This document shows, one piece after another, positions 6,983 to 30,622 of a stretch of DNA of 32,000 bases. The notes beneath the pieces are model-generated. The model ran no database searches, was not told the DNA's origin, and was given only the letters and a program-made list of their open reading frames with translations. Source of the DNA: Candidatus Calditenuis fumarioli (GTDB lineage: Archaea; Thermoproteota; Nitrososphaeria_A; Caldarchaeales; Calditenuaceae); contig JANVYR010000001.1 of the NCBI GenBank assembly GCA_030059665.1, positions 544,191 to 576,190 on the forward strand, given 5' to 3'. The stretch's first letter is position 1; every line of letters begins with the position of its first letter. Both the position numbers and the translations under genes were made by a program.

Positions 6983-7363
6983 ACTAGTATCGGTTTGATC
7001 ATCCGGATGTTGATCTTTATGCGAAAGAAGTAAATGTGGTTGGTGCTTCGCCATTCTAATTTACTGGGAGCATATCAGCTTCTTTCGGGTTTTGCTTGCA
7101 TTGTTGAATGGTTTGTATGGCCGTTGCCCTCCACTGCATATCGTGTCTGAACATCAGCCAAGTAGCGAGAGTAGCCTTTTACGTAGTTCCTCAAACTCTT
7201 CATCGGCAAACTTTGTAGATCTATTGCTATATTATGTGTCGATGTCATTGATAAGCTAGATTGGGTGACTCGGGCTGAAGCAGCCGTGCAGCCTGTCTCT
7301 TAAGAAATGGGAATTTTTTCCACGAAGTACTCCTTCAATGGACCACATGTTTAAAGTCGTGCC

Positions 7364-8128
7364 TCATTCTATGATGCGCCTAAAACTTATTGATGCTAAA
7401 ATGAATGATATTGCATCGAAGATCGTTATCGAAGCCAAATCCATTAGGAGATTAGAAAGGTCTCCAGTGATCAATAGTCCTCTGACAGCGTCAACGACGT
7501 AACTCAAAGGGTTAAACGTTGAAATCTCCCTAAGGAGAGGTGGCATTATTTGGGTAGGATACAAGGCATTGCTGGCAAAGAAAAGTGGCATAATTATCGC
7601 CTGTCCCAATCCCAAAAACCTCTCGCGGGTTTTCATAAAGGAGGCTATGAGTATGGATATGGCTGCAAACCCTCCTGAGGCCAGGAATATAATGGTGAAG
7701 GCTAGGACGAAATAAACCGGGTTGTGGATAAAATGTACTCCTATTATGAGAGCTACAGGAAGTATTATGAGGGCCTGAAACAGAGCCCTAACACCTGAAG
7801 CCATAGAGCGTCCTATAACCACCGAATACCTCGAAGCTGGAGTGACGAGCAGCTTCTTCAGAATTCCAGAGTCGCGTTCCCAAACCATCATCAAACCATA
7901 GAATATGCTGACGAATGTTGTTGTCTGTATCATAATGCCCGGGGTTATGAAATCGGTATATGGGACTTCTCCTGTAGGTATAGCCCTAACACTACTCATT
8001 ACGGGGCCGTAAATCACTATCCAAAGTATTGGTTGGACGGCCCTGAAGTACAATTCCGTCCTATCGTGACGTAATCTTCTCAATTCAAGCTCAACCATGA
8101 CCAACATGATTTTCAGACCTTTTATCAT
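7364..8128 (-). CDS. ABC-2 type transporter permease (low-GC copy)
   Basis: 254 aa, 6 hydrophobic helices, typical ABC-2 length. Lys/Ile/Phe-rich composition unlike the rest of the window. Lies 4 nt downstream of its ATPase. Confidence 0.85.
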   Translation of the reverse strand: MIKGLKIMLVMVELELRRLRHDRTELYFRAVQPILWIVIYGPVMSSVRAIPTGEVPYTDFITPGIMIQTTTFVSIFYGLMMVWERDSGILKKLLVTPASRYSVVIGRSMASGVRALFQALIILPVALIIGVHFIHNPVYFVLAFTIIFLASGGFAAISILIASFMKTRERFLGLGQAIIMPLFFASNALYPTQIMPPLLREISTFNPLSYVVDAVRGLLITGDLSNLLMDLASITIFDAISFILASISFRRIIE

Positions 8129-8132
8129 GTTT

Positions 8133-9140
8133 TCACCCCTTTCTAATCATATCTCGCATATGCTTAACATCGCTTATTCTTCCCTTCTCTACAATTCTTG
8201 TTCCAACAAACTTAAGAAAAACGTCGTCCAGAGTAGGCCTGGTAATAGAAACTCGGCCTATAGGTACGCCATTCTCTCTTAAGATATTTATTAAATATGG
8301 TAATGTTGATTCGGCATCGCTGACAATTACATTTAAGCCTTCCTCTTCAACAATAACATCTTTAACATAAGATGATTTGCGGAATTCTTGAGCTATATCA
8401 GGTTTGAAGATGCCCTTCTCGAATGTAATAGTAATAATCTCCCCGCCTAAGGAATGCTTCAACTCTTCGGCAGTCCCTCTCGCAACAATCTTTCCCTGAT
8501 TTATTATGGCTATGTTATCAGCATATTGGTCGGCCTCATCCATATAATGCGTGTTGAAGAAAATGGTTACGCCATACTCCCTTTTAAAAACCTGTAAACT
8601 TTCCCAAACCACCTTCCGGGCAGCAGGGTCCAAGCCAATGGTTGGTTCGTCCAAAAAGATTATTTTGGGCTTTATGAGCATGGCGCATGCTATTTCCAGT
8701 CTCCTGATCATTCCTCCTGAATACGTGCTAACGGGCTCGTTCTGCACACCGGTCAGACCCATATTTTCCAAGACCTCATCGATTACCTTCCTTCTTTCAT
8801 GACGCGGTATTCCAAAAATTTTCGCGTATATCAGGAGGTTCTCGTAGCCACTGATGTCTGTCCAGACGCTCATCTCTTGGGGGACATAGCTTATCAGCCT
8901 CCTAACTTTACTGCCTTGTCGAACGACGTCCAATCCGAAAACGCGCGCTTCGCCTGCCGTAGGTCTAATCTGTGTTGTCAAAATACGCATAAGCGTCGTT
9001 TTTCCAGCACCGTTAGGACCTAAAAGAGCAAATGACGTCCCGGCATCAACAGTCAAATCCACCTTATCCAATGCCCTTACCTTTCCACCATAAACTTTTA
9101 CAAGGCCTTTGGTCTGTACAGCAAGCTCCATATCGCTCAT
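8133..9140 (-). CDS. ABC transporter ATP-binding protein (DrrA/daunorubicin-resistance-like, low-GC copy)
   Basis: Walker A GPNGAGKTT, signature YSGGMIRR, Walker B IIFLDEPTIGLD, H-loop NTHYMDEA. 335 aa with the C-terminal regulatory-like domain common in this subfamily. Confidence 0.9.
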   Translation of the reverse strand: MSDMELAVQTKGLVKVYGGKVRALDKVDLTVDAGTSFALLGPNGAGKTTLMRILTTQIRPTAGEARVFGLDVVRQGSKVRRLISYVPQEMSVWTDISGYENLLIYAKIFGIPRHERRKVIDEVLENMGLTGVQNEPVSTYSGGMIRRLEIACAMLIKPKIIFLDEPTIGLDPAARKVVWESLQVFKREYGVTIFFNTHYMDEADQYADNIAIINQGKIVARGTAEELKHSLGGEIITITFEKGIFKPDIAQEFRKSSYVKDVIVEEEGLNVIVSDAESTLPYLINILRENGVPIGRVSITRPTLDDVFLKFVGTRIVEKGRISDVKHMRDMIRKG

Positions 9141-11412: not shown

Positions 11413-13335
11413 TCAGCTCCCAGAATCTCCCTGCTCCTGACCCGTCGCCTTTCGGGAGACCTTCAACTCGACGACCTCTCCGACGCCGTACGGAACCAGC
11501 GCGACCAGCTGGGATGCGACATCCTCGTCTGGCCTCGTGCCCCACGCCCTCTCCACCTCCCTAAGGAGCTCCGCCACCAGCTCCCTCGCTGGCTTCCGGC
11601 CGGGACGGAGAACGAGGTAGGCGTCCGCGACGGACCTCACGTAGTCCGGGTGGCCTGAGACTACACGACCGTCACCGGTCAGACCTATCGCGAGTTTGAG
11701 CTCCGCGATCAGGTAGTTCTTCGGAGGCTTGACGACGAAGGAGCCCTTCTCGAGGTAGGTCCCGGGAGGAGGGGTGAAGGAGACCTGTTCTGGCCTCACG
11801 TAGTAGACCGATACGCTCCCGAGGCCCTCCCGCCAGGCCCTGCTGTAGGAGGCGCAGAAGGTCGCGGCCTGGACGACGTCCGACTCTTCGGATGCCCCTC
11901 CCTTCAGGAGCACGGCCGGTGATCCCCGGACCTCCGCGTGGAAGACCAGGTCCCCGGGCTCCATGTGTTTCTTCAGGAGCCTGACGTTGGATGAGGCGTC
12001 CCTCCCGGCGACGACGAGCTTCCCCGATGTGGTGAAGGTCCACCGGTAGGACTCGTACCACTGCTTGGGCCTGGAAGGTCTGAACGCCACTGGCTTCGGT
12101 GCCTCGGCCCTCGTCGCCTCGCGCCTGACCCTCTCGATCTCCCTCCTCAGCGCCTCGGCCTCCGAGAGGACGTTCCTCCTCGCCTCCTCCAGCCCCTTCG
12201 CTTTGTCGAAGATCGATGAGACCTGCCGCGTCACGGGCTCGGAGAGGCCCATCAGGAGCTTGCGGCCGCAGACGTCCACCTCCAACGCGTTCCCCTTCAC
12301 CTCGGCCCTCAGCGTTCCGAGATCGATCGATCCGGACCTGCTCAGCCTGAGCCTCTCCAGCTCAGCTGCATTTGTGAAGATAGCCTGAGCGGCCCTTCTC
12401 AGCTCCTCCGCCTCCCGACCCAGCGAGGCCGCTAGCGCGAGCTTCTCCTCCAGCTCCCTCTCCATCCTCCTCGCCTTCTCCTCGGCCTCCCTCGCCTTCG
12501 CGGACCTGCTCAGGTGCTCCACCGCGAGCCTCAGGTACTCAAGAACGGCCTCGTTCACCCCCTCGAACTCCCTCACCTCCACCGCCTCGAACTCGAGGTG
12601 CGTCAGCCTGACCAGCGATAGCTCGACCCTTCCGGTGAGCAGGTAGATCCTAGGCCTCCCGGACCTGGCCTCCTCCAGGAGCCTCCCCAGCGTGGCCCTC
12701 AGTCCCTCGAGCTGCTCCTCCGTCAGGTCGCCGATCCTCACGTCGCCTCTCAGCCCGGACCTGTGGAGGGCCTCGTTGGCGTACTTCGGCGCGATGCCCA
12801 GCTCCCTCACCAGCACCGAACCCAACTTCTTCGACGGCCCGGCGGACCTGACCTCCCCCAGCGACGGCATGCCCTTGACCTCCTTGGAAACGCATGGGCC
12901 CGTCAGACCCTCTCCGGACTTCAGGGGCGGGTGCGCCGCGAGCACCTGTCCCTCAGTACCTCCGAGAAGCAGTAGCCTGCCGCCGGGGTAGAGCTCGCAG
13001 CAGAGCCTCAGGCCTCCCTCGAATCCCATCGAGATCGCCCTCTCGCCCCTGAAGGGTTCGAGGCTCGTCAGGGTCCTTCCCCTGAGGTGCTCCCTGAGGG
13101 CCCTGCAGAAGCCGTCCGGTTCGGCCCTCTCCTCGAACGTCCCCTTGACCAGCACCAACAACGATTCGGGCACGAGCTGGAGCTCCCAGCTGATCCCCTC
13201 CCCCCTCAGCCTGATCGTGTAGGACCCGTCGGGAAGGAGGTAGGCGTTCTGGACCCTCGAGCCGACGACCTGGGGAGCGATCTCCGCTGAGAGCCGTTCG
13301 ATCTCGATGCTGGAGAGCTGGACCCGCACGACCAC
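11413..13335 (-). CDS. NFACT-family protein (FbpA / RqcH-Rqc2 homologue; ribosome quality control)
   Basis: 640 aa: N-terminal NFACT-N-like region, long Glu/Arg/Leu coiled-coil middle, and a DUF814/NFACT-R core (VVAGRDASSNVRLLKKHMEPGDLVFHAEVRGSPAVLLKGG). Confidence 0.8.
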   Translation of the reverse strand: MVVRVQLSSIEIERLSAEIAPQVVGSRVQNAYLLPDGSYTIRLRGEGISWELQLVPESLLVLVKGTFEERAEPDGFCRALREHLRGRTLTSLEPFRGERAISMGFEGGLRLCCELYPGGRLLLLGGTEGQVLAAHPPLKSGEGLTGPCVSKEVKGMPSLGEVRSAGPSKKLGSVLVRELGIAPKYANEALHRSGLRGDVRIGDLTEEQLEGLRATLGRLLEEARSGRPRIYLLTGRVELSLVRLTHLEFEAVEVREFEGVNEAVLEYLRLAVEHLSRSAKAREAEEKARRMERELEEKLALAASLGREAEELRRAAQAIFTNAAELERLRLSRSGSIDLGTLRAEVKGNALEVDVCGRKLLMGLSEPVTRQVSSIFDKAKGLEEARRNVLSEAEALRREIERVRREATRAEAPKPVAFRPSRPKQWYESYRWTFTTSGKLVVAGRDASSNVRLLKKHMEPGDLVFHAEVRGSPAVLLKGGASEESDVVQAATFCASYSRAWREGLGSVSVYYVRPEQVSFTPPPGTYLEKGSFVVKPPKNYLIAELKLAIGLTGDGRVVSGHPDYVRSVADAYLVLRPGRKPARELVAELLREVERAWGTRPDEDVASQLVALVPYGVGEVVELKVSRKATGQEQGDSGS

Positions 13336-17056: not shown

Positions 17057-17128
17057 GGGCCGGTAGATCAGTGGTAGATCGCCCGCTTGGCGTGCGGGAG
17101 GTCGGGGGTTCAAATCCCCCCCGGTCCA
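17057..17128 (+). tRNA. tRNA-Ala (anticodon GGC)
   Basis: Cloverleaf folded by hand: acceptor GGGCCGG/CCGGTCC with the G3:U70 alanine identity pair, D arm GATC-AGTGGTA-GATC, anticodon arm CCCGC-TTGGCGT-GCGGG, T arm GGGGG-TTCAAAT-CCCCC, discriminator A. CCA is not encoded. Confidence 0.9.
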
Positions 17129-20106: not shown

Positions 20107-20436
20107 TCACGTGTACTCGCGCCATGTGTGACCGCACTTGGTGCACCTGAAGAACTGCGTCATCGGTTCGTCTGCGGACCTCGTCTGGACAGTCCACCAG
20201 TAGGCTTCCCGGTTGCCGCACTGTGGGCAGACCACGTCGGTCGTCTTCGGATGGATCGAGGCCTCGTCGCTCTCGTCCACCACGATGGCCTTCCTCCTCT
20301 GGGCCCTGACCCTTCCGAGGTTGACTGTGACCGATCCCGAAGCCTTCTTGTAACCGCACTTCCTGCAGACCAGCACGACGCCCGATGAGGTCCGTGTCGA
20401 GGTCATGAAGCCGCCGCACTTCGGACAGAACTCCAT
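20107..20436 (-). CDS. tfs: transcription factor S (TFS / RpoM-like cleavage factor)
   Basis: 109 aa with two zinc ribbons (CPKCGG...CRKCG and CPQCGN...CTKCGH) and the TFIIS acidic-hairpin context QTRSADEPMTQFFRC. Alternative start ATG 20454. The remaining upstream part of the 334-aa ORF-track entry is antisense to the next gene. Confidence 0.85.
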   Translation of the reverse strand: MEFCPKCGGFMTSTRTSSGVVLVCRKCGYKKASGSVTVNLGRVRAQRRKAIVVDESDEASIHPKTTDVVCPQCGNREAYWWTVQTRSADEPMTQFFRCTKCGHTWREYT

Positions 20437-20502
20437 CCTCTCCCGGCACGACATCGCAGCTATGTATATGTTAGCTGTTCGTATGGGTCCGGGGGTGATC
20501 GA

Positions 20503-21492
20503 TTGGAGAGGGTGAGGGTCGCCGTTATCGGCGCAGGGTTCTGGGGGAGGAACCACGTCAGGGTGCTGACCGAGCTCGATGGGTGTGAGGTGGTTGCGGT
20601 CTGCGACATCGACCTCGACAGGGCCAAAAGGGTCGCACAGGCTTTCGGTGTTCCGAGGTACACCGCAGACTACAGGGAGCTCTGCGAGGACGACTCCGTG
20701 GACGCGGTCACCGTCTGCACCCCATCCACCACCCACGCCAGGATGGCCGTCGACTTCGTCTCGTCGGGGAAGGACGTGCTGGTGGAGAAGCCGATGGCCT
20801 CGAACCTGGAGGAGGCGCTGTGGATGGCCGACGAGATCAGGTCGTCCGGAAGGTCCGTGATGGTCGGGTTCATCGAGCGCTTCAACCCGGCGGTGCAGAA
20901 GGCGGTCGAGATGCTGCGCCAGCGGAGGATCGGTGACCCCATCCTGATCTACGGCAGGAGGATAGGGCCGTGGCCCGAACGGATAGGAGACGTCGGGGTG
21001 ATCCACGACACCGCCATCCACGACATCGACCTCTCGGTGCACCTGTTCGGCGGCCTTCCGAGGTCGGTCTTCGCCGTCGGAGGCTCGGTCATACACACGA
21101 AGGAGGATCACGTCCAGTCGACGCTCGACTTCGGAGGGGGAAGGTCTGCGATGATCGAGGCCAACTGGCTCACCCCCAGGAAGAAAAGGGAGATGTTCGT
21201 GACGGGGACCGAGGGGGTGCTGAGCATCGAGTTCCTCAGGAGGGAGGTGGTGCTCGAGAAGGCCGATGGCTCCTACTCTCCCGTGGTGGAGCAGCGTGAA
21301 CCCCTGAAAGTGGAGCTCGAGAACTTCGTCAGGTCGATAGCTACCGGGAGCCCTCCCTCACCGGATTACCGGGACGGCCTGATCTCGACGGCGATCGCCG
21401 AGGCAATCCTCCTCTCGATCAGAAGAGGGAGGACCGTTCACCTCGACGAGCTGGTCAGCCTCCGGGAGCTGGGGGTCGATGTAAGGGATTAG
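20503..21492 (+). CDS. Gfo/Idh/MocA-family NAD(P)-dependent oxidoreductase
   Basis: N-terminal Rossmann motif RVAVIGAGFWGRNH, EKPMA motif (VLVEKPMASN), 329 aa. Confidence 0.8.
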   Translation: MERVRVAVIGAGFWGRNHVRVLTELDGCEVVAVCDIDLDRAKRVAQAFGVPRYTADYRELCEDDSVDAVTVCTPSTTHARMAVDFVSSGKDVLVEKPMASNLEEALWMADEIRSSGRSVMVGFIERFNPAVQKAVEMLRQRRIGDPILIYGRRIGPWPERIGDVGVIHDTAIHDIDLSVHLFGGLPRSVFAVGGSVIHTKEDHVQSTLDFGGGRSAMIEANWLTPRKKREMFVTGTEGVLSIEFLRREVVLEKADGSYSPVVEQREPLKVELENFVRSIATGSPPSPDYRDGLISTAIAEAILLSIRRGRTVHLDELVSLRELGVDVRD

Positions 21493-26838: not shown

Positions 26839-26847
26839 TTATATTTT
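26839..26847 (+). promoter_or_regulatory. TATA box for the secreted-protein / signal-peptidase cassette
   Basis: TTATATTTT, centred about 26 nt upstream of ATG 26869, predicting a leaderless or near-leaderless mRNA. It lies in an A/T-rich 255-bp intergenic region. Confidence 0.45.
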
Positions 26848-26868
26848 GGACGTCTTAGGGGTTGGAGC

Positions 26869-27303
26869 ATGAGAGCGGAAGACAGGAGTCGGATGTTCGC
26901 GTTACTGCTGCTGGCGCTGGCGGCGGTCGTTACGGTGGCATCGGCAGCATTGGCGGTGCAGATATCCCTCGGCAGCTCGGACGTCAACCAGCTGGGCGGT
27001 ACCGGCCTCGTAGACGTCACCTGCCCTGCCAACCCCTGCCAGGTGACGAAGGTCAGCTGGGTCCTGACGTCTTCAGCACCATACAAGGTCGATAAGGTGA
27101 GCGTCCAGTGGACGACCGCCAAGTCGTCGGGCGCAAACTACATGGTCTACGTGGTCCTCTACGACAGCTCCAACAACGTCAAATCCAGCGGTTCCGCGAC
27201 CCAGGCAGCCGCATCAGGCGCGGTTACGACCCAGGTCGACGTGGCTCCGGACGTGGACCCCAAGGACGTCTACAGGGTCGAGGTAGTGATAGTTGAGCAG
27301 TAA
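26869..27303 (+). CDS. small secreted beta-rich protein, paralogue A (144 aa; predicted mature about 115 aa)
   Basis: MRAEDRSRMFALLLLALAAVVTVASAALA|VQISLGSSDVN...: basic n-region, hydrophobic core, A-L-A cleavage site. The mature part is Ser/Thr/Val-rich with alternating beta pattern and ends YRVEVVIVEQ. It has two Cys. Start chosen at the ATG downstream of the TATA box. The ORF-track start 26644 would cross the promoter. Confidence 0.6.
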   Translation: MRAEDRSRMFALLLLALAAVVTVASAALAVQISLGSSDVNQLGGTGLVDVTCPANPCQVTKVSWVLTSSAPYKVDKVSVQWTTAKSSGANYMVYVVLYDSSNNVKSSGSATQAAASGAVTTQVDVAPDVDPKDVYRVEVVIVEQ

Positions 27304-27333
27304 GCCGCTGCCACCTATGTTGTCGGTCGCGAC

Positions 27334-27750
27334 TTGAACCGAAGGTATATCGCTGTTTTTTCCATCGCGCTATTCCTCATAACGCTCACAGCCTTCTCCG
27401 TCTCGATATCCATCACGACCGTAGACCCTTTGGCCAGCAGGGCCTACGTCGAGTACGTGCTCGGAAAGGCGTCGGGTACAAATCCTCCTGAGATCAGGAG
27501 CGTATTGCTGAACGGTAATCCAGTCAGCAGCGTTAGCATCTCGTTTTACATGAGAGCATTACTTCAATTCATTAGGGTGACTGTTACGTTGTACGACGAC
27601 AACGGTATTGTCATAGGTTCGGGCAGCGACTGCGGATTTTACATATTTCCAGGTATCCAAAGTATGACTGTTCCGGTCTCTCCAAATCCACTGCCATCAC
27701 AGGTGGCCCGGGTCGAAACCTCGATACAGGTGGTGCTTCTATGCAATTGA
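27334..27750 (+). CDS. small secreted beta-rich protein, paralogue B (138 aa; mature about 116 aa)
   Basis: MNRRYIAVFSIALFLITLTAFS|VSISITTVDP.... Shares with A/C the junction motif, a V-x-V-x-LYD-x-x-N-x-V-x-x-SGS-like block (IRVTVTLYDDNGIVIGSGS) and a C-terminal RVE strand (ARVETSIQVVLLCN). Lower GC than its neighbours (about 40% on line 27541-27600). Overlaps gene C by 10 nt. Confidence 0.55.
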   Translation: MNRRYIAVFSIALFLITLTAFSVSISITTVDPLASRAYVEYVLGKASGTNPPEIRSVLLNGNPVSSVSISFYMRALLQFIRVTVTLYDDNGIVIGSGSDCGFYIFPGIQSMTVPVSPNPLPSQVARVETSIQVVLLCN

Positions 27751-28139
27751 GGGCCGTATCGCTTTCAATGTTGTTGCTTTTGATGGCATCGGTATCGGTT
27801 ACAGCTCTCAGCATTGCGGTCTCGCTCACTTCCTCAAACGTCGACAGACTGGGAGCCGGAGGGTCCAATGTGCCGAAATACAATTTCTGGGTGACGTCCC
27901 TCTCCGTAACGGTCAACAACGATAACGTGAACAACAGGATCAGGGGAGTAACAGCGTACATCGGGATCAACGTTCCCGGAACTTATGTGGTGACCGTGTC
28001 GGTGAACGACAATCCCTCGTGTAGCGCCAGCACGACCGCCAGCCTTCCGGGTACCGTGACCGTAACACTGCCCAACGTCGCCGCGTGTAACTACGTTAGT
28101 GCAGGCGCGCCCGTCAGGATAGAGGTCAGGCCTCCATGA
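27741..28139 (+). CDS. small secreted beta-rich protein, paralogue C (132 aa; mature about 106 aa)
   Basis: MQLRAVSLSMLLLLMASVSVTALSIA|VSLTSSNVDRLGAGG.... The N-terminal mature motif is nearly identical to A (VQISLGSSDVNQLGGTG). C-terminal VRIEVRPP. Two Cys. The stop overlaps the signal-peptidase start (ATGA 28136-28139). Confidence 0.6.
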   Translation: MQLRAVSLSMLLLLMASVSVTALSIAVSLTSSNVDRLGAGGSNVPKYNFWVTSLSVTVNNDNVNNRIRGVTAYIGINVPGTYVVTVSVNDNPSCSASTTASLPGTVTVTLPNVAACNYVSAGAPVRIEVRPP

Positions 28140-28834
28140 CGCGAGCCGTTGCCAGGAATCTGGTCCTGATCCTTGTAATTGCGTCTGCGGTCCTCCTAAC
28201 GGCCCAATCCCTTCCAGGGCTGATGCTCCTCCACGTCGTCAGCGGATCGATGGAGCCCAACGTCCCTATCGGCAGCATGGTGTTGCTGGCGAGAGGGGAC
28301 AAGCCCTCGGTGGGCGACGTGGCAGCGTACCTGCTGGAGGTCCAGGGCAGGCGGTACGTGATACTCCACCGGGTGACCGGGGTGACCGAGGACGGAAGGT
28401 ACGTGTTCTCGGCCGATGCGGGCGATCCTTACGGTACCGACCTGGTGGAGCCCGAGAGGGTGCTCGGCCGGATGCTGATCGCCATACCCTACCTCGGGTA
28501 CGTCGTGCCCTACGCTCCGGTACTGGTGGGCCTTGCTCTGCTCCTCTCCCTCGTGCCCAAGAGGACGAGGCTCCACGTTCATGGTCCGGTCGATCCGGGC
28601 TTCCTGAGGTACCTCCCGGCGGTTCTCGTGCCGCTCACGCTGCTGCTCCCGGTGAAGGGCCTCCCCATGATGCTCGGTCCCGCGTACGCCGTCCTGACGC
28701 TCGCGATCTACGCGATCACGCTCCGCTTCGAGCGAGAGATCAGACACGCGGACCTCGTTTACGCGCTCCTCTCGATCTCGGTACTGGTCTCGATAGACTA
28801 CGCAAGGCTCGCTGCTCTCCTATGGGGACTGTGA
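28136..28834 (+). CDS. signal peptidase I, Sec11/SipW (Ser-His) type, with extra C-terminal membrane domain
   Basis: N-terminal TM, catalytic-serine box VVSGSMEPNVPIGS, His box YVILHRVTGV, GD...D box SADAGDPYGTDLVEPERVLGRM. This is followed by about 4 hydrophobic segments (aa ~113-229) instead of the single C-terminal TM usual for SipW/Sec11. Confidence 0.75.
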   Translation: MTRAVARNLVLILVIASAVLLTAQSLPGLMLLHVVSGSMEPNVPIGSMVLLARGDKPSVGDVAAYLLEVQGRRYVILHRVTGVTEDGRYVFSADAGDPYGTDLVEPERVLGRMLIAIPYLGYVVPYAPVLVGLALLLSLVPKRTRLHVHGPVDPGFLRYLPAVLVPLTLLLPVKGLPMMLGPAYAVLTLAIYAITLRFEREIRHADLVYALLSISVLVSIDYARLAALLWGL

Positions 28835-30280
28835 AACAGCGGGGGAGAGGATCTCACCGCACTCCGGGCAGACGTTGGCGTCGGCGGGGACCTCGTGCCC
28901 CTTGGAGCATAGCCTGATCCTCAACACCTGATCCTCCTCTTGCTTCTCCATGGAGCCTGTTCGAGGCTTCGACCTCCCCTTCCTGCTGGGCCTGTACAGC
29001 AGCAGGAATCCAGATCCTGCGATGACCGCCGCCAGCAGCCCTATGTTCACGAGGTCTGGCTCCGTTACGTAAACCGCCTCGACCCTGATCGGCCTGTCGA
29101 CTACGACCCTGATCGCGCCGTTCCGGTGCTCGAGCGTCCCTATGTTGCCCACGAAGCCCGTCAGCCTCGGCCTGAAGAACGCGTTGCCGGGCGGGTTGGG
29201 GACGGCCATCAGCGTCGCCTCAGATCCCTCGTCGTACCACCCCGTACCACCGGCGCCGTACCTGCCCCTGACCTCGACGTAGTACTGCCTCACGTAGACC
29301 GCCTCCGCCCTGACAGGGCCTTTCACTTCGAGCTCTAACCTCTCCTGTGGCGGCAGCAGGGACGAGTTCCAACCGACGAACCGCAGCCTGACCTCGTTCT
29401 CGCGCAGCACTACCTGGGATTCGACCGAGACCGCGACCTTCTCACCAGCGGTGACCCAGCCGTCGTAGACGACGCCCTTCGGCCCCGTCAGAACAACCCT
29501 GTACTGGCGCTCGTAGACCGGCCTGACCACGTGGGGGCCTCTCACCTCGAGCACGGCCACGTTCGAGACCACCCTGTTGACGATCGCGGGCACCGAGCCG
29601 ACCGATTCCCAGCCGGTCAGCACCAGCCTCTCCCCCTCTGAGAGCTGTATCACCGATGGCGCGCTCAGCAGCACCGTCTGGCCCAGCCTGTACCAGCCCG
29701 ATCCGTTGACCACAGCGTAAGGTGAGACGCCCTGAACGTAGTACTCCCGGACGTAGACCGCCTCGATCCTGAGAGGTCTGGAGACGTAGACGCGGTTCGA
29801 CGAGTTGAACGGGTACTCGCCGAGGCTCCAGCGGACGAACCTCAGCCTGACCCCATCGGACTCGTAGTGAACCGACGGCGCCACAAGCTCCACAACGGTA
29901 CCCTCCTCGACCCAGAAGGACCTCCTGAGGTTCTCCAGCTCCGAGTCGATCACGACCAAGTACTCGGCCTTGTAGACCGCGACGAGGGCCTTGACGTTCC
30001 TGAGCGTCACGCACGGGTCCCTTATGGTCCAGTTCCAGCCGACGAACCTGAGACGTGCGTCCACGTCGACGTACTGTACCGGAGGCGCGCAGACCGTTGT
30101 GCCCTCGGAGGCCCTGAAGGGAACCCTCGCGGGCGCCCCCTCATGGAGGACCGTGACCGGGTAGTTCGAGGTTATTTGGACCTGTCCCTCCTCCGCCGTG
30201 GCCGTGGGGGCCAGCGTAGCCAGAGCCGCGAGCGCTAGGACCGCAAGCGAGATCAGCCAGCACCAGCCGGTCGCTTTCAA
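28820..30280 (-). CDS. surface protein with five tandem ~75-aa beta repeats (divergent InlB-B-repeat-like), C-terminal TM anchor and cytoplasmic zinc-ribbon-like tail
   Basis: Start placed at TTG 30280 (MKATGWCWLISLAVLALAALATLAPTATA|EEGQ, a good signal peptide), 22 nt downstream of the end of a TATA box. The ORF-track start 30595 would read through the tRNA-Pro gene. Each repeat ends (A/P)VY-x-(A/R)-(E/Q)-Y and contains RLRFVGW/RLVLTGW/RLTGFVG. The tail is LVNIGLLAAVIAGSGFLLLY, then a basic stretch, then C-x3-H-x10-CPEC. Confidence 0.7.
   Translation of the reverse strand: MKATGWCWLISLAVLALAALATLAPTATAEEGQVQITSNYPVTVLHEGAPARVPFRASEGTTVCAPPVQYVDVDARLRFVGWNWTIRDPCVTLRNVKALVAVYKAEYLVVIDSELENLRRSFWVEEGTVVELVAPSVHYESDGVRLRFVRWSLGEYPFNSSNRVYVSRPLRIEAVYVREYYVQGVSPYAVVNGSGWYRLGQTVLLSAPSVIQLSEGERLVLTGWESVGSVPAIVNRVVSNVAVLEVRGPHVVRPVYERQYRVVLTGPKGVVYDGWVTAGEKVAVSVESQVVLRENEVRLRFVGWNSSLLPPQERLELEVKGPVRAEAVYVRQYYVEVRGRYGAGGTGWYDEGSEATLMAVPNPPGNAFFRPRLTGFVGNIGTLEHRNGAIRVVVDRPIRVEAVYVTEPDLVNIGLLAAVIAGSGFLLLYRPSRKGRSKPRTGSMEKQEEDQVLRIRLCSKGHEVPADANVCPECGEILSPAVSQSP
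29060..30184 (-). repeat. five tandem coding repeats (75, 73, 80, 73 and 74 codons) inside the surface-protein gene
   Basis: Protein-level periodicity counted by hand (residues 33-407). The repeats are diverged at DNA level and conserved in the pattern Y-x-V...G-x-GWY...L-x-A-x-P...RLRF-x-GW...V-x-A-x-Y. Confidence 0.65.
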
Positions 30281-30306
30281 ACCTAATTCATCGAACCGGG
30301 ATGCCG

Positions 30307-30318
30307 TAAAATAATTTT
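30307..30318 (-). promoter_or_regulatory. TATA box for the repeat surface-protein gene
   Basis: AAAATTATTTTA on the minus strand, centred about 30 nt upstream of TTG 30280. Confidence 0.4.
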
Positions 30319-30424
30319 GTGCAGCATAGTCAGGCAGGCGGTTGGCCGGCATACTACAGGGGTGTTTCCGATCGGTTTCTTGCGGTGACCTCGAACCCCT
30401 CGAACGACCTCTTTCTGGCCTCCG

Positions 30425-30516
30425 TGGGGCCGGTGGGATTTGAACCCACGACCTCCCGGGTTCGCGTCCCTCACGATCCCGAGCCGGGCGTCCACTCCAT
30501 GCTAGACTACGGCCCC
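30425..30516 (-). tRNA. tRNA-Pro (anticodon CGG) with a 17-nt intron after position 37
   Basis: Hand fold of the reverse complement: acceptor GGGGCCG/CGGCCCC, D arm GTCT-AGCATGGAGT-GGAC, anticodon stem CCCGG/CCGGG, loop CU-CGG-G, intron ATCGTGAGGGACGCGAA (about 30461-30477), T arm GTGGG-TTCAAAT-CCCAC, discriminator A. 75 nt mature plus 17 nt intron = 92 nt. Confidence 0.85.
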
Positions 30517-30622
30517 CTCGATCCACCTGCGCTCCCACCATTTGATCTTGACTCCGCTCTATTCGGAGCTCCACCGGCGCTTCTCCTTGCCACAACTCAC
30601 CCTGACCGCTCTGCGGAAAAAC

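Follow-up and report, generated by a model that had tools for sequence, protein, structure and literature searches.

The cassette described here, genes A to E, was found in a 32,000-nt stretch of Candidatus Calditenuis fumarioli (Caldarchaeales; accession number GCA_030059665.1, contig JANVYR010000001.1, positions 544,191 to 576,190 of the forward strand), hereafter called the window. It coded for three small secreted proteins (A, B and C), a signal peptidase (D) and a membrane protein (E). It is read here, at a probability of roughly 0.55, as the locus of a surface fiber that would depend on Sec and signal peptidase I (SPase I) and be built by strand donation or strand augmentation, following the logic of TasA, Tafi and AbpX with new families of subunits and accessory proteins.

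Gene order and distribution of the cassette

The sequence-only reading of this DNA had described a unit of four same-strand genes, and open reading frames (ORFs) A to D were recovered at exactly the coordinates it gave (Table 1), together with the 10-nt overlap of B and C, the ATGA overlap joining C and D, and the TATA-like A/T-rich element TTATATTTT that it had placed ahead of A. That reading missed a fifth conserved gene, E, which was convergent with D and overlapped it by 15 nt at the 3' ends (28820-28834), and the unit accordingly had five genes. The position of TTATATTTT suggests a leaderless or short-leader transcript for the predicted A unit, and comparable A/T-rich elements were located 20-35 nt upstream of A in relatives; a second A/T-rich element, AAAATTATTTTA, is a putative separate promoter of the inverted gene E.

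A gene-neighborhood census, as proposed with the sequence-only reading, was made on 56 distinct A loci, with eligibility set by the length of downstream sequence; 5 genome and 52 metagenome loci had been fetched with the A profile, and more came from exact look-ups. Three A/B/C-type ORFs were present in 31 of the 33 loci with at least 900 nt downstream (the remaining two being probably artefacts of the ORF-overlap filter), D in 24/24 loci in which the sequence extended at least 1600 nt past A, and E in 15/15 loci with at least 3300 nt downstream. Among related loci, E was on the same strand as D in 10 and inverted in 11, and an inverted E always went with the long form of D (226-233 aa). The cassette was conserved in Caldarchaeales (Aigarchaeota), and its flanking genes varied by lineage: NurA/HerA in locus L001, ThiI in locus L004, and an aminotransferase plus Mrp in the window. 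Since the flanking genes differ between lineages, A to E, as judged from gene order, are a five-gene unit that travels as an autonomous module. A to D are not chance ORFs: A had 79 homologue clusters (0 with a Pfam domain), and the gene order was kept in dozens of loci.

A word-indexed homologue search gave 4 matches each for B and C, and the orthologues of these two were therefore taken from the fetched loci. When a profile built on the mature forms of A, B and C (alignment A3) was run against the full set of 1.84 billion representatives, 90 proteins matched at E<=1e-3; these included about 70 with a length of 115-175 aa, composed of a signal peptide plus one domain. An exact look-up of the A sequence gave no record, and one A homologue (P0009) was named 'type 1 fimbria pilin' by the Joint Genome Institute. 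By these searches, the A/B/C family is small and entirely unannotated, and homology to known fibers would not find it.

More distant versions of the cassette differed in gene content: (i) L064, from a divergent lineage, had three small paralogues together with a peptidase of 164 aa and a protein resembling E (hhalign against E, 7e-34); (ii) L066 (1-6442), in the Chloroflexota metagenome-assembled genome GCA_030693085.1, had the whole cassette with at least five small paralogues, a peptidase that shared 39% identity and the C-terminal LWGL tail with D, and a homologue of E in which the ectodomain was doubled (hhalign against E, 6e-53 over 400 columns); and (iii) L062 (3000-6588), in a bacterial-type context (HisKA_3/GerE), had three small paralogues alongside a peptidase of S24/S26 type and a DUF5305 protein of 531 aa. 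The system was thus not purely archaeal, and the bacterial whole-cassette copy in L066 implies transfer between domains. A pair of S24/S26 peptidase and DUF5305 protein marks the Tafi and AbpX fiber loci (PMC11821415; bioRxiv 10.64898/2026.01.04.697558), and the DUF5305 protein in the E slot of L062 ties the A/B/C superfamily to loci of this type.

Products of the cassette genes

A, B and C had a common architecture, as was originally proposed, with a basic n-region, a hydrophobic core and then a small-x-small site. Signal peptides were predicted at residues 1-29 of A, 1-22 of B and 1-24 of C, with predicted cleavage sites ALA↓V (ALA↓VQ), AFS↓V and ALS↓I, respectively, and the resulting mature proteins of 115, 116 and 108 aa each contained two Cys, also in agreement with that proposal, and zero N-x-S/T sequons. 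Ser, Thr, Val and Asn together made up 38-51% of A/B/C. No class III signal was seen, the small-x-small site being located after the hydrophobic core. Export by the twin-arginine translocation pathway was considered, RRRK being present in the n-region of some orthologues, and was rejected: twin arginines were absent from the window protein and from many orthologues, and the h-region was strongly hydrophobic. The public annotation of C (P0080, 118 aa) had a start 14 codons later and lost most of the signal peptide; the longer C ORF was supported by homologues such as P0082 (132 aa).

Mature A displayed the conserved N-terminal segment VxIxLxSxDVxQLGGTGxVDVxCPxNPC followed by an immunoglobulin (Ig)-like beta-sandwich. 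Conservation was highest in its 28 N-terminal residues, with 12/28 positions conserved at >=90% versus 21/87 in the core, and the Cys pair, invariant in A only (CPxxxC), was located within this N-terminal segment. B carried the shared block V.V.LYDxxGxxI.SGS, C shared the N-terminal motif xxVSLTSSxVxxLGxG with A, and a post-cleavage N-terminal motif was common to all three paralogues. The alternating hydrophobics V-x-I-x-L at the start of mature A are the pattern expected of a donated strand. A was 55-65% identical to its orthologues, and B and C 29-42%; A was the slowest-evolving gene of the cassette, B and C changed about twice as fast, and in distant comparisons A was more conserved than the peptidase D. 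A conserved A together with fast-diverging B and C would fit a homopolymer subunit accompanied by minor subunits.

The description of A, B and C as 'clear paralogues' was overstated: it held at the profile level, firmly for A and B and moderately for C, but pairwise BLASTP matches were weak for A/B (E=1e-3 over 47 aa) and A/C (4e-4, confined to the signal peptide and N-terminus) and not significant for B/C. Because pairwise BLASTP was too weak for paralogy, jackhmmer and hhalign were applied to the locus-derived families. The jackhmmer search from any one of A, B and C recovered all three positional classes. With signal peptides removed, hhalign gave 98% for A-B (E 1e-12), 93% for A-C (E 3e-7) and 93% for B-C (E 3e-7); once the N-terminal strand had been taken off as well, it gave 98% for A-B (E 3e-13), 88% for B-C and 13% for A-C. 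The shared sequence blocks reported earlier were aligned to each other by hhalign and MAFFT (YMVYVVLYD, IRVTVTLYD and TYVVTVSVND). At the level of sequence profiles, A and B are firm paralogues, and C can moderately be taken as a more distant one; since A-C fell to 13% without the N-terminal strand, the link of C to A comes largely from the shared N-terminal motif.

The AlphaFold2 model of A, built on an 87-sequence alignment, had a mean predicted local distance difference test score (pLDDT) of 79.5 and was composed of a signal-peptide helix (3-24), a low-confidence stretch (residues 25-50, pLDDT 48-58) and a seven-strand sandwich (47-143, pLDDT about 90). That of C had a mean pLDDT of 73.4, a disordered N-terminus and a six-strand core (pLDDT 81-96). 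The cores of A and C were thus modeled as small Ig-like sandwiches of about 90 residues with six or seven strands, and the low monomer confidence of both N-termini was as expected for a segment folding only against a partner.

The fourth gene had been called a signal peptidase, and this assignment was borne out: D matched TIGR02228 (archaeal signal peptidase I) at 54.9 bits against a curated cut-off of 51.85, and it aligned to human SEC11A/C across the SGSMEP Ser box and the LHRV His box, with Ser36 (SGSMEP) and His78 (HRV) as catalytic residues. It also matched the SipW model at E 2.8e-14, but at 53 bits versus a 190-bit equivalog cut-off, and its Pfam S24 and S26 matches were sub-threshold. 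The hydropathy profile displayed an N-terminal hydrophobic segment (residues 1-32, transmembrane (TM) anchor), the catalytic domain and, at the C-terminus, a multi-TM extension with LWGL as its last residues. On these sequence matches, D is a Sec11/SipW-type signal peptidase I with intact catalytic motifs.

For gene E, the mechanical minus-strand ORF (28820-30595) comprised 591 aa; because it enclosed a tRNA-Pro gene (30424-30516), its first ~100 codons are non-coding, and E starts downstream of the tRNA. In E, a signal peptide (ATA↓EE) was followed by about five divergent InlB-B-repeat-like modules with the signatures RLxFxGW ... AxYxxxYxV, then by a TM helix and, on the cytoplasmic side, a zinc ribbon. 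E was 34-42% identical, over ~400-470 residues, to the same-strand gene after D in relatives. Flg_new_2 (PF18998, InlB B-repeat) was matched by 5/13 of the E homologues (best E 2e-4) and zinc-ribbon models by 10/13; the window E itself had no match to PF18998 at E<=1, the match of the Chloroflexota homologue was faint, and comparison of E with PDB gave zinc-ribbon noise only. E and the DUF5305 protein of L062 were alike in position and topology (N-terminal hydrophobic segment, ectodomain, TM helix and cytoplasmic tail). Possible roles of E are those of an anchor, a platform for assembly or an accessory to the peptidase.

Relation to known fibers and rival readings

To our knowledge, non-type-IV archaeal filaments (threads, archaeal bundling pili (ABP), Tafi, cannulae and AbpX) have been recognized only since 2022, and all filaments tied to a dedicated signal peptidase that we know of lie in TasA/DUF1102 sequence space. 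The sequence-only reading saw no TasA/camelysin-type N-terminal motif and proposed profile and Foldseek searches. In agreement with it, Peptidase_M73/TasA had no match at E<=1 among A, B, C or any of 63 superfamily members, DUF1102 was matched by 0/63, and no pilin model was matched either. Sub-threshold Pfam/NCBIfam matches of A/B/C and the 63 members were generic Ig-like (fn3, PKD and Kre9); FxLYD_dom was matched by 6/63 members (best 2.8e-5) and by B itself weakly (E 0.005), and a literature search on FxLYD found no papers. The ABP paper reported that Caldarchaeales encode recognizable TasA homologues (PMC9245690); judged by the profile searches, A/B/C are not those homologues, and the cited papers on TasA, Tafi, AbpX, threads and ABP make no mention of the A/B/C family.

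The cassette was compared with four groups of known systems, beginning with haloarchaeal Tafi (Haloarcula hispanica TafA-G, Natrinema TafE and the DUF1102 clusters). Tafi comprises the subunits TafA, TafC and TafE, the TM anchor TafF and the DUF5305 protein TafG; knockout and complementation of TafD established that the dedicated peptidase processes TafA and is required for fibers; and the versions found in Thermococcales and Archaeoglobus are of Sec type, with two or three subunits of the DUF1102 family (PMC11821415). Strand donation was confirmed by the structure of the Natrinema TafE pilus (PMC12337348). Tafi and the cassette shared paralogous secreted beta-sandwich proteins (major and minor subunits in Tafi), an SPase I encoded in the cluster (dedicated in Tafi), a membrane accessory or anchor, Sec-type signals (in the thermophilic Tafi versions) and subunit genes diverging faster than enzyme genes (PMC11821415, PMC12337348), and distant A/B/C relatives adjoin a peptidase and DUF5305, as in taf loci. 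They differed in that (i) the cassette proteins have ~110 aa when mature versus 150-200 aa for Tafi subunits; (ii) the window contained no DUF5305 and no detectable TafG homologue; (iii) the A/B/C superfamily had no DUF1102 match and no PDB sequence match to TafE; (iv) D had extra TM helices and not the Ig-like C-terminal ectodomain of TafD; and (v) no TafB-like regulator was present beside the cassette.

The other three groups were as follows: (i) Bacillus subtilis tapA-sipW-tasA, the fibers of which form by donor-strand exchange (PMC9674648, PMC10151520), likewise encodes a SipW-type peptidase with its fiber substrates plus an accessory or nucleator, but TasA is a ~230-aa jelly-roll of Peptidase_M73, whereas A and C were modeled as small Ig-like sandwiches, outside the TasA-superfamily fold (jelly-roll of ~170-230 residues); (ii) AbpX (Pyrodictium abyssi; Thermoproteota, Bacillota and Chloroflexota) has a dedicated TIGR02228 SPase I adjoining the fibril subunit, with minor subunits, tip proteins and a DUF5305 SPase accessory in many loci, and its archaeal and bacterial members, including Chloroflexota, are intermixed, suggesting horizontal transfer (bioRxiv 10.64898/2026.01.04.697558), but its TasA-superfamily subunit, its peptidase with about ten TM helices and its DUF5305 accessory were not seen in the window cassette; and (iii) the Sulfolobus thread (Saci_0406/0405) and Pyrobaculum ABP (AbpA/AbpB) are SPase-I-processed non-type-IV filaments with N-terminal strand donation, each with a second protein that is a paralogue or an accessory (PMC9715654, PMC9245690), but their loci have no dedicated peptidase, and their subunits are larger, with no detectable relation to A/B/C in sequence or among the Foldseek top matches. 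The claim of an undescribed system therefore stood in that A/B/C belong to no described fiber family, and failed in that Tafi and AbpX already define this kind of system; as far as sequence comparison goes, the kind of system is known, and the subunit and accessory families are new.

If the cassette does encode a fiber of this kind, A, B and C would be exported by Sec, and D would cleave after the small-x-small site, freeing a conserved N-terminal beta-strand (V-x-I-x-L...V..LGGTG). A thin filament would arise as the freed strand of one subunit paired, through strand donation or edge augmentation, with the Ig-like sandwich of the subunit that follows. A, which comes first in the operon and is the most conserved gene, would for these reasons be the major subunit, and B and C would be fast-evolving minor subunits (tip, adaptor or terminator). 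E, judged by its large beta-rich ectodomain, carried by one TM helix, and by the DUF5305 slot in distant relatives, would hold the membrane-proximal end or assist D.

Several results weigh against a fiber. PDB sequence-profile searches at E<=10 gave no fiber protein and no TasA, AbpA or TafE chain. Foldseek against PDB with the models of A and C gave nothing at E<=1e-3; the best neighbors, at E>=0.015, were generic Ig-like, among them Cj0090, DUF1425, GH2 Ig domains and ester-bond adhesin repeats, and C had generic GH2-type Ig neighbors in common with A. Neither kind of search tied A or C to a known pilin or matrix protein. The modeled seven-strand core of A may be self-sufficient and need no donated strand, and the conserved N-terminus of A/B/C could instead be a peptidase recognition element. 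The monomer model of A had no obviously incomplete fold, and the proposed polymerization of A/B/C is an inference from synteny, conservation pattern and analogy. The description of D as 'dedicated' has its basis in synteny (24/24 loci). E as a diverged DUF5305 protein was rejected (hhalign 0.5% against the L062 protein), and as far as testable E had no homology to TapA, AbpB or TafF.

The main rival, which we judge rather unlikely, is a non-filamentous envelope complex, in which A/B/C would be small Ig-like proteins released into the pseudo-periplasm or S-layer space, where they would bind the repeats in the E ectodomain and so form a hetero-oligomeric adhesin, receptor or scaffold; their conserved N-terminus would do no more than allow recognition and cleavage by D. 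The core of A was modeled as a complete sandwich with no pilin match at fold level, and E, present in every eligible locus, has a large repeat ectodomain that suits partner binding. Dedicated SipW-type peptidases prefer cognate signal classes, and D matched the SipW model. A recognition motif, however, would be expected mainly before the cleavage site, whereas the conservation of A extended ~28 residues into the mature protein and exceeded that expected of a mere ligand; moreover, the characterized loci of the same layout (TasA, Tafi and AbpX) all encode strand-donation fibers (PMC9674648, PMC12337348, bioRxiv 10.64898/2026.01.04.697558).

An improbable third reading takes A/B/C as matrix or biofilm proteins that would self-associate by beta-sheet stacking, disulfides or metal bridges into a mesh and not into pili. 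It could draw on the invariant CPxxxC pair in the N-terminal segment of A, on the Ser-, Thr-, Val- and Asn-rich composition of A/B/C, and on AbpX as a case of related systems able to form lattices and hydrogels (bioRxiv 10.64898/2026.01.04.697558); but the AbpX lattices are themselves made of strand-donation fibrils, no calcium-site or amyloid signature turned up (no test was aimed at either), and the membrane-anchored E of every eligible locus argues for cell attachment. Ligand- or lipid-binding sandwiches of RhoGDI/NPC2 type, serving transport or sensing with D and E for export and docking only, are very improbable: RhoGDI and NPC2 were among the weak Foldseek neighbors of A (ranks 14-50, E 0.08-0.35), but not significantly and below generic Ig domains, and such a role leaves unexplained both the three paralogues with a common conserved N-terminal strand and the link to DUF5305-type loci.

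Within the strand-donation reading, a bolder version is put forward tentatively: A/B/C would form a strand-donation pilus of a structurally new class. Its subunit, with an Ig-like core of ~90 residues and a donor arm of ~20, would be the smallest known and would have no relation to the folds of TasA (jelly-roll), DUF1102 or threads; E would be its own accessory in place of DUF5305, and the system would have been exchanged between Caldarchaeales and Chloroflexota in hot springs. The cassette may also be the very highly transcribed 'pilus system' of Calditenuis streamers, a three-gene locus of Calditenuis aerorheumensis (_01412-_01414) with more than 150,000 reads per kilobase per million mapped reads (PMC4681859), the identity of which with the cassette could not be verified.

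Surrounding window and biological meaning

The coordinates of the cassette genes, their upstream elements and other features of the window are listed in Table 1.

Table 1. Features of the cassette and of the rest of the window, with coordinates counted from the first letter of the window
Feature	Coordinates	Strand	Description
Gene A	26869-27303	+	144-aa ORF; putative major subunit
Gene B	27334-27750	+	138-aa ORF, TTG start; putative minor subunit
Gene C	27741-28139	+	132-aa ORF; putative minor, tip or adaptor subunit
Gene D	28136-28834	+	232-aa ORF; Sec11/SipW-type (S26B) signal peptidase I
Gene E	28820-30280	-	486 aa from TTG; type-I membrane protein
TATA-like A/T-rich element TTATATTTT	26839-26847	+	~26 nt 5' of A start; read from sequence
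A/T-rich element AAAATTATTTTA	30307-30318	-	~30 nt 5' of E TTG start; read from sequence
tRNA-Pro(CGG)	30424-30516	-	93 nt, probably intron-bearing; directly upstream of gene E
NFACT-family protein	11413-13335	-	
tRNA-Ala(GGC)	17057-17128	+	
ORF ending in RPB9 and TFIIS zinc ribbons	20107-21111	-	Probably over-extended at 5' end

Ten other ORFs of the window, a part of those present, were scanned; they coded for transporters, aminotransferases, respiratory subunits and the like, and no type IV pilus machinery was found among them. The G+C content was 61-67% in the window, 0.62-0.65 in A, D and E, 0.50 in B and 0.55 in C. A separate low-G+C block (7001-9140; 43-44% versus 61-67% around it) contained genes for an ABC-2 permease (7364-8128) and for an ABC ATPase carrying a DrrA C-terminal domain (8133-9140), both on the minus strand, and it may be a recently acquired island.

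If the fiber reading of the cassette is true, an assembly logic that combines a private SPase I with major and minor subunit paralogues and an accessory in the membrane also operates on an unrelated and much smaller Ig-like subunit, and the DUF5305 accessory is replaceable by a different membrane protein. The cassette would then offer a compact, 115-residue, thermostable self-assembling module, and it is a candidate adhesion or biofilm structure for Caldarchaeales, a widespread and barely cultivated hot-spring lineage.

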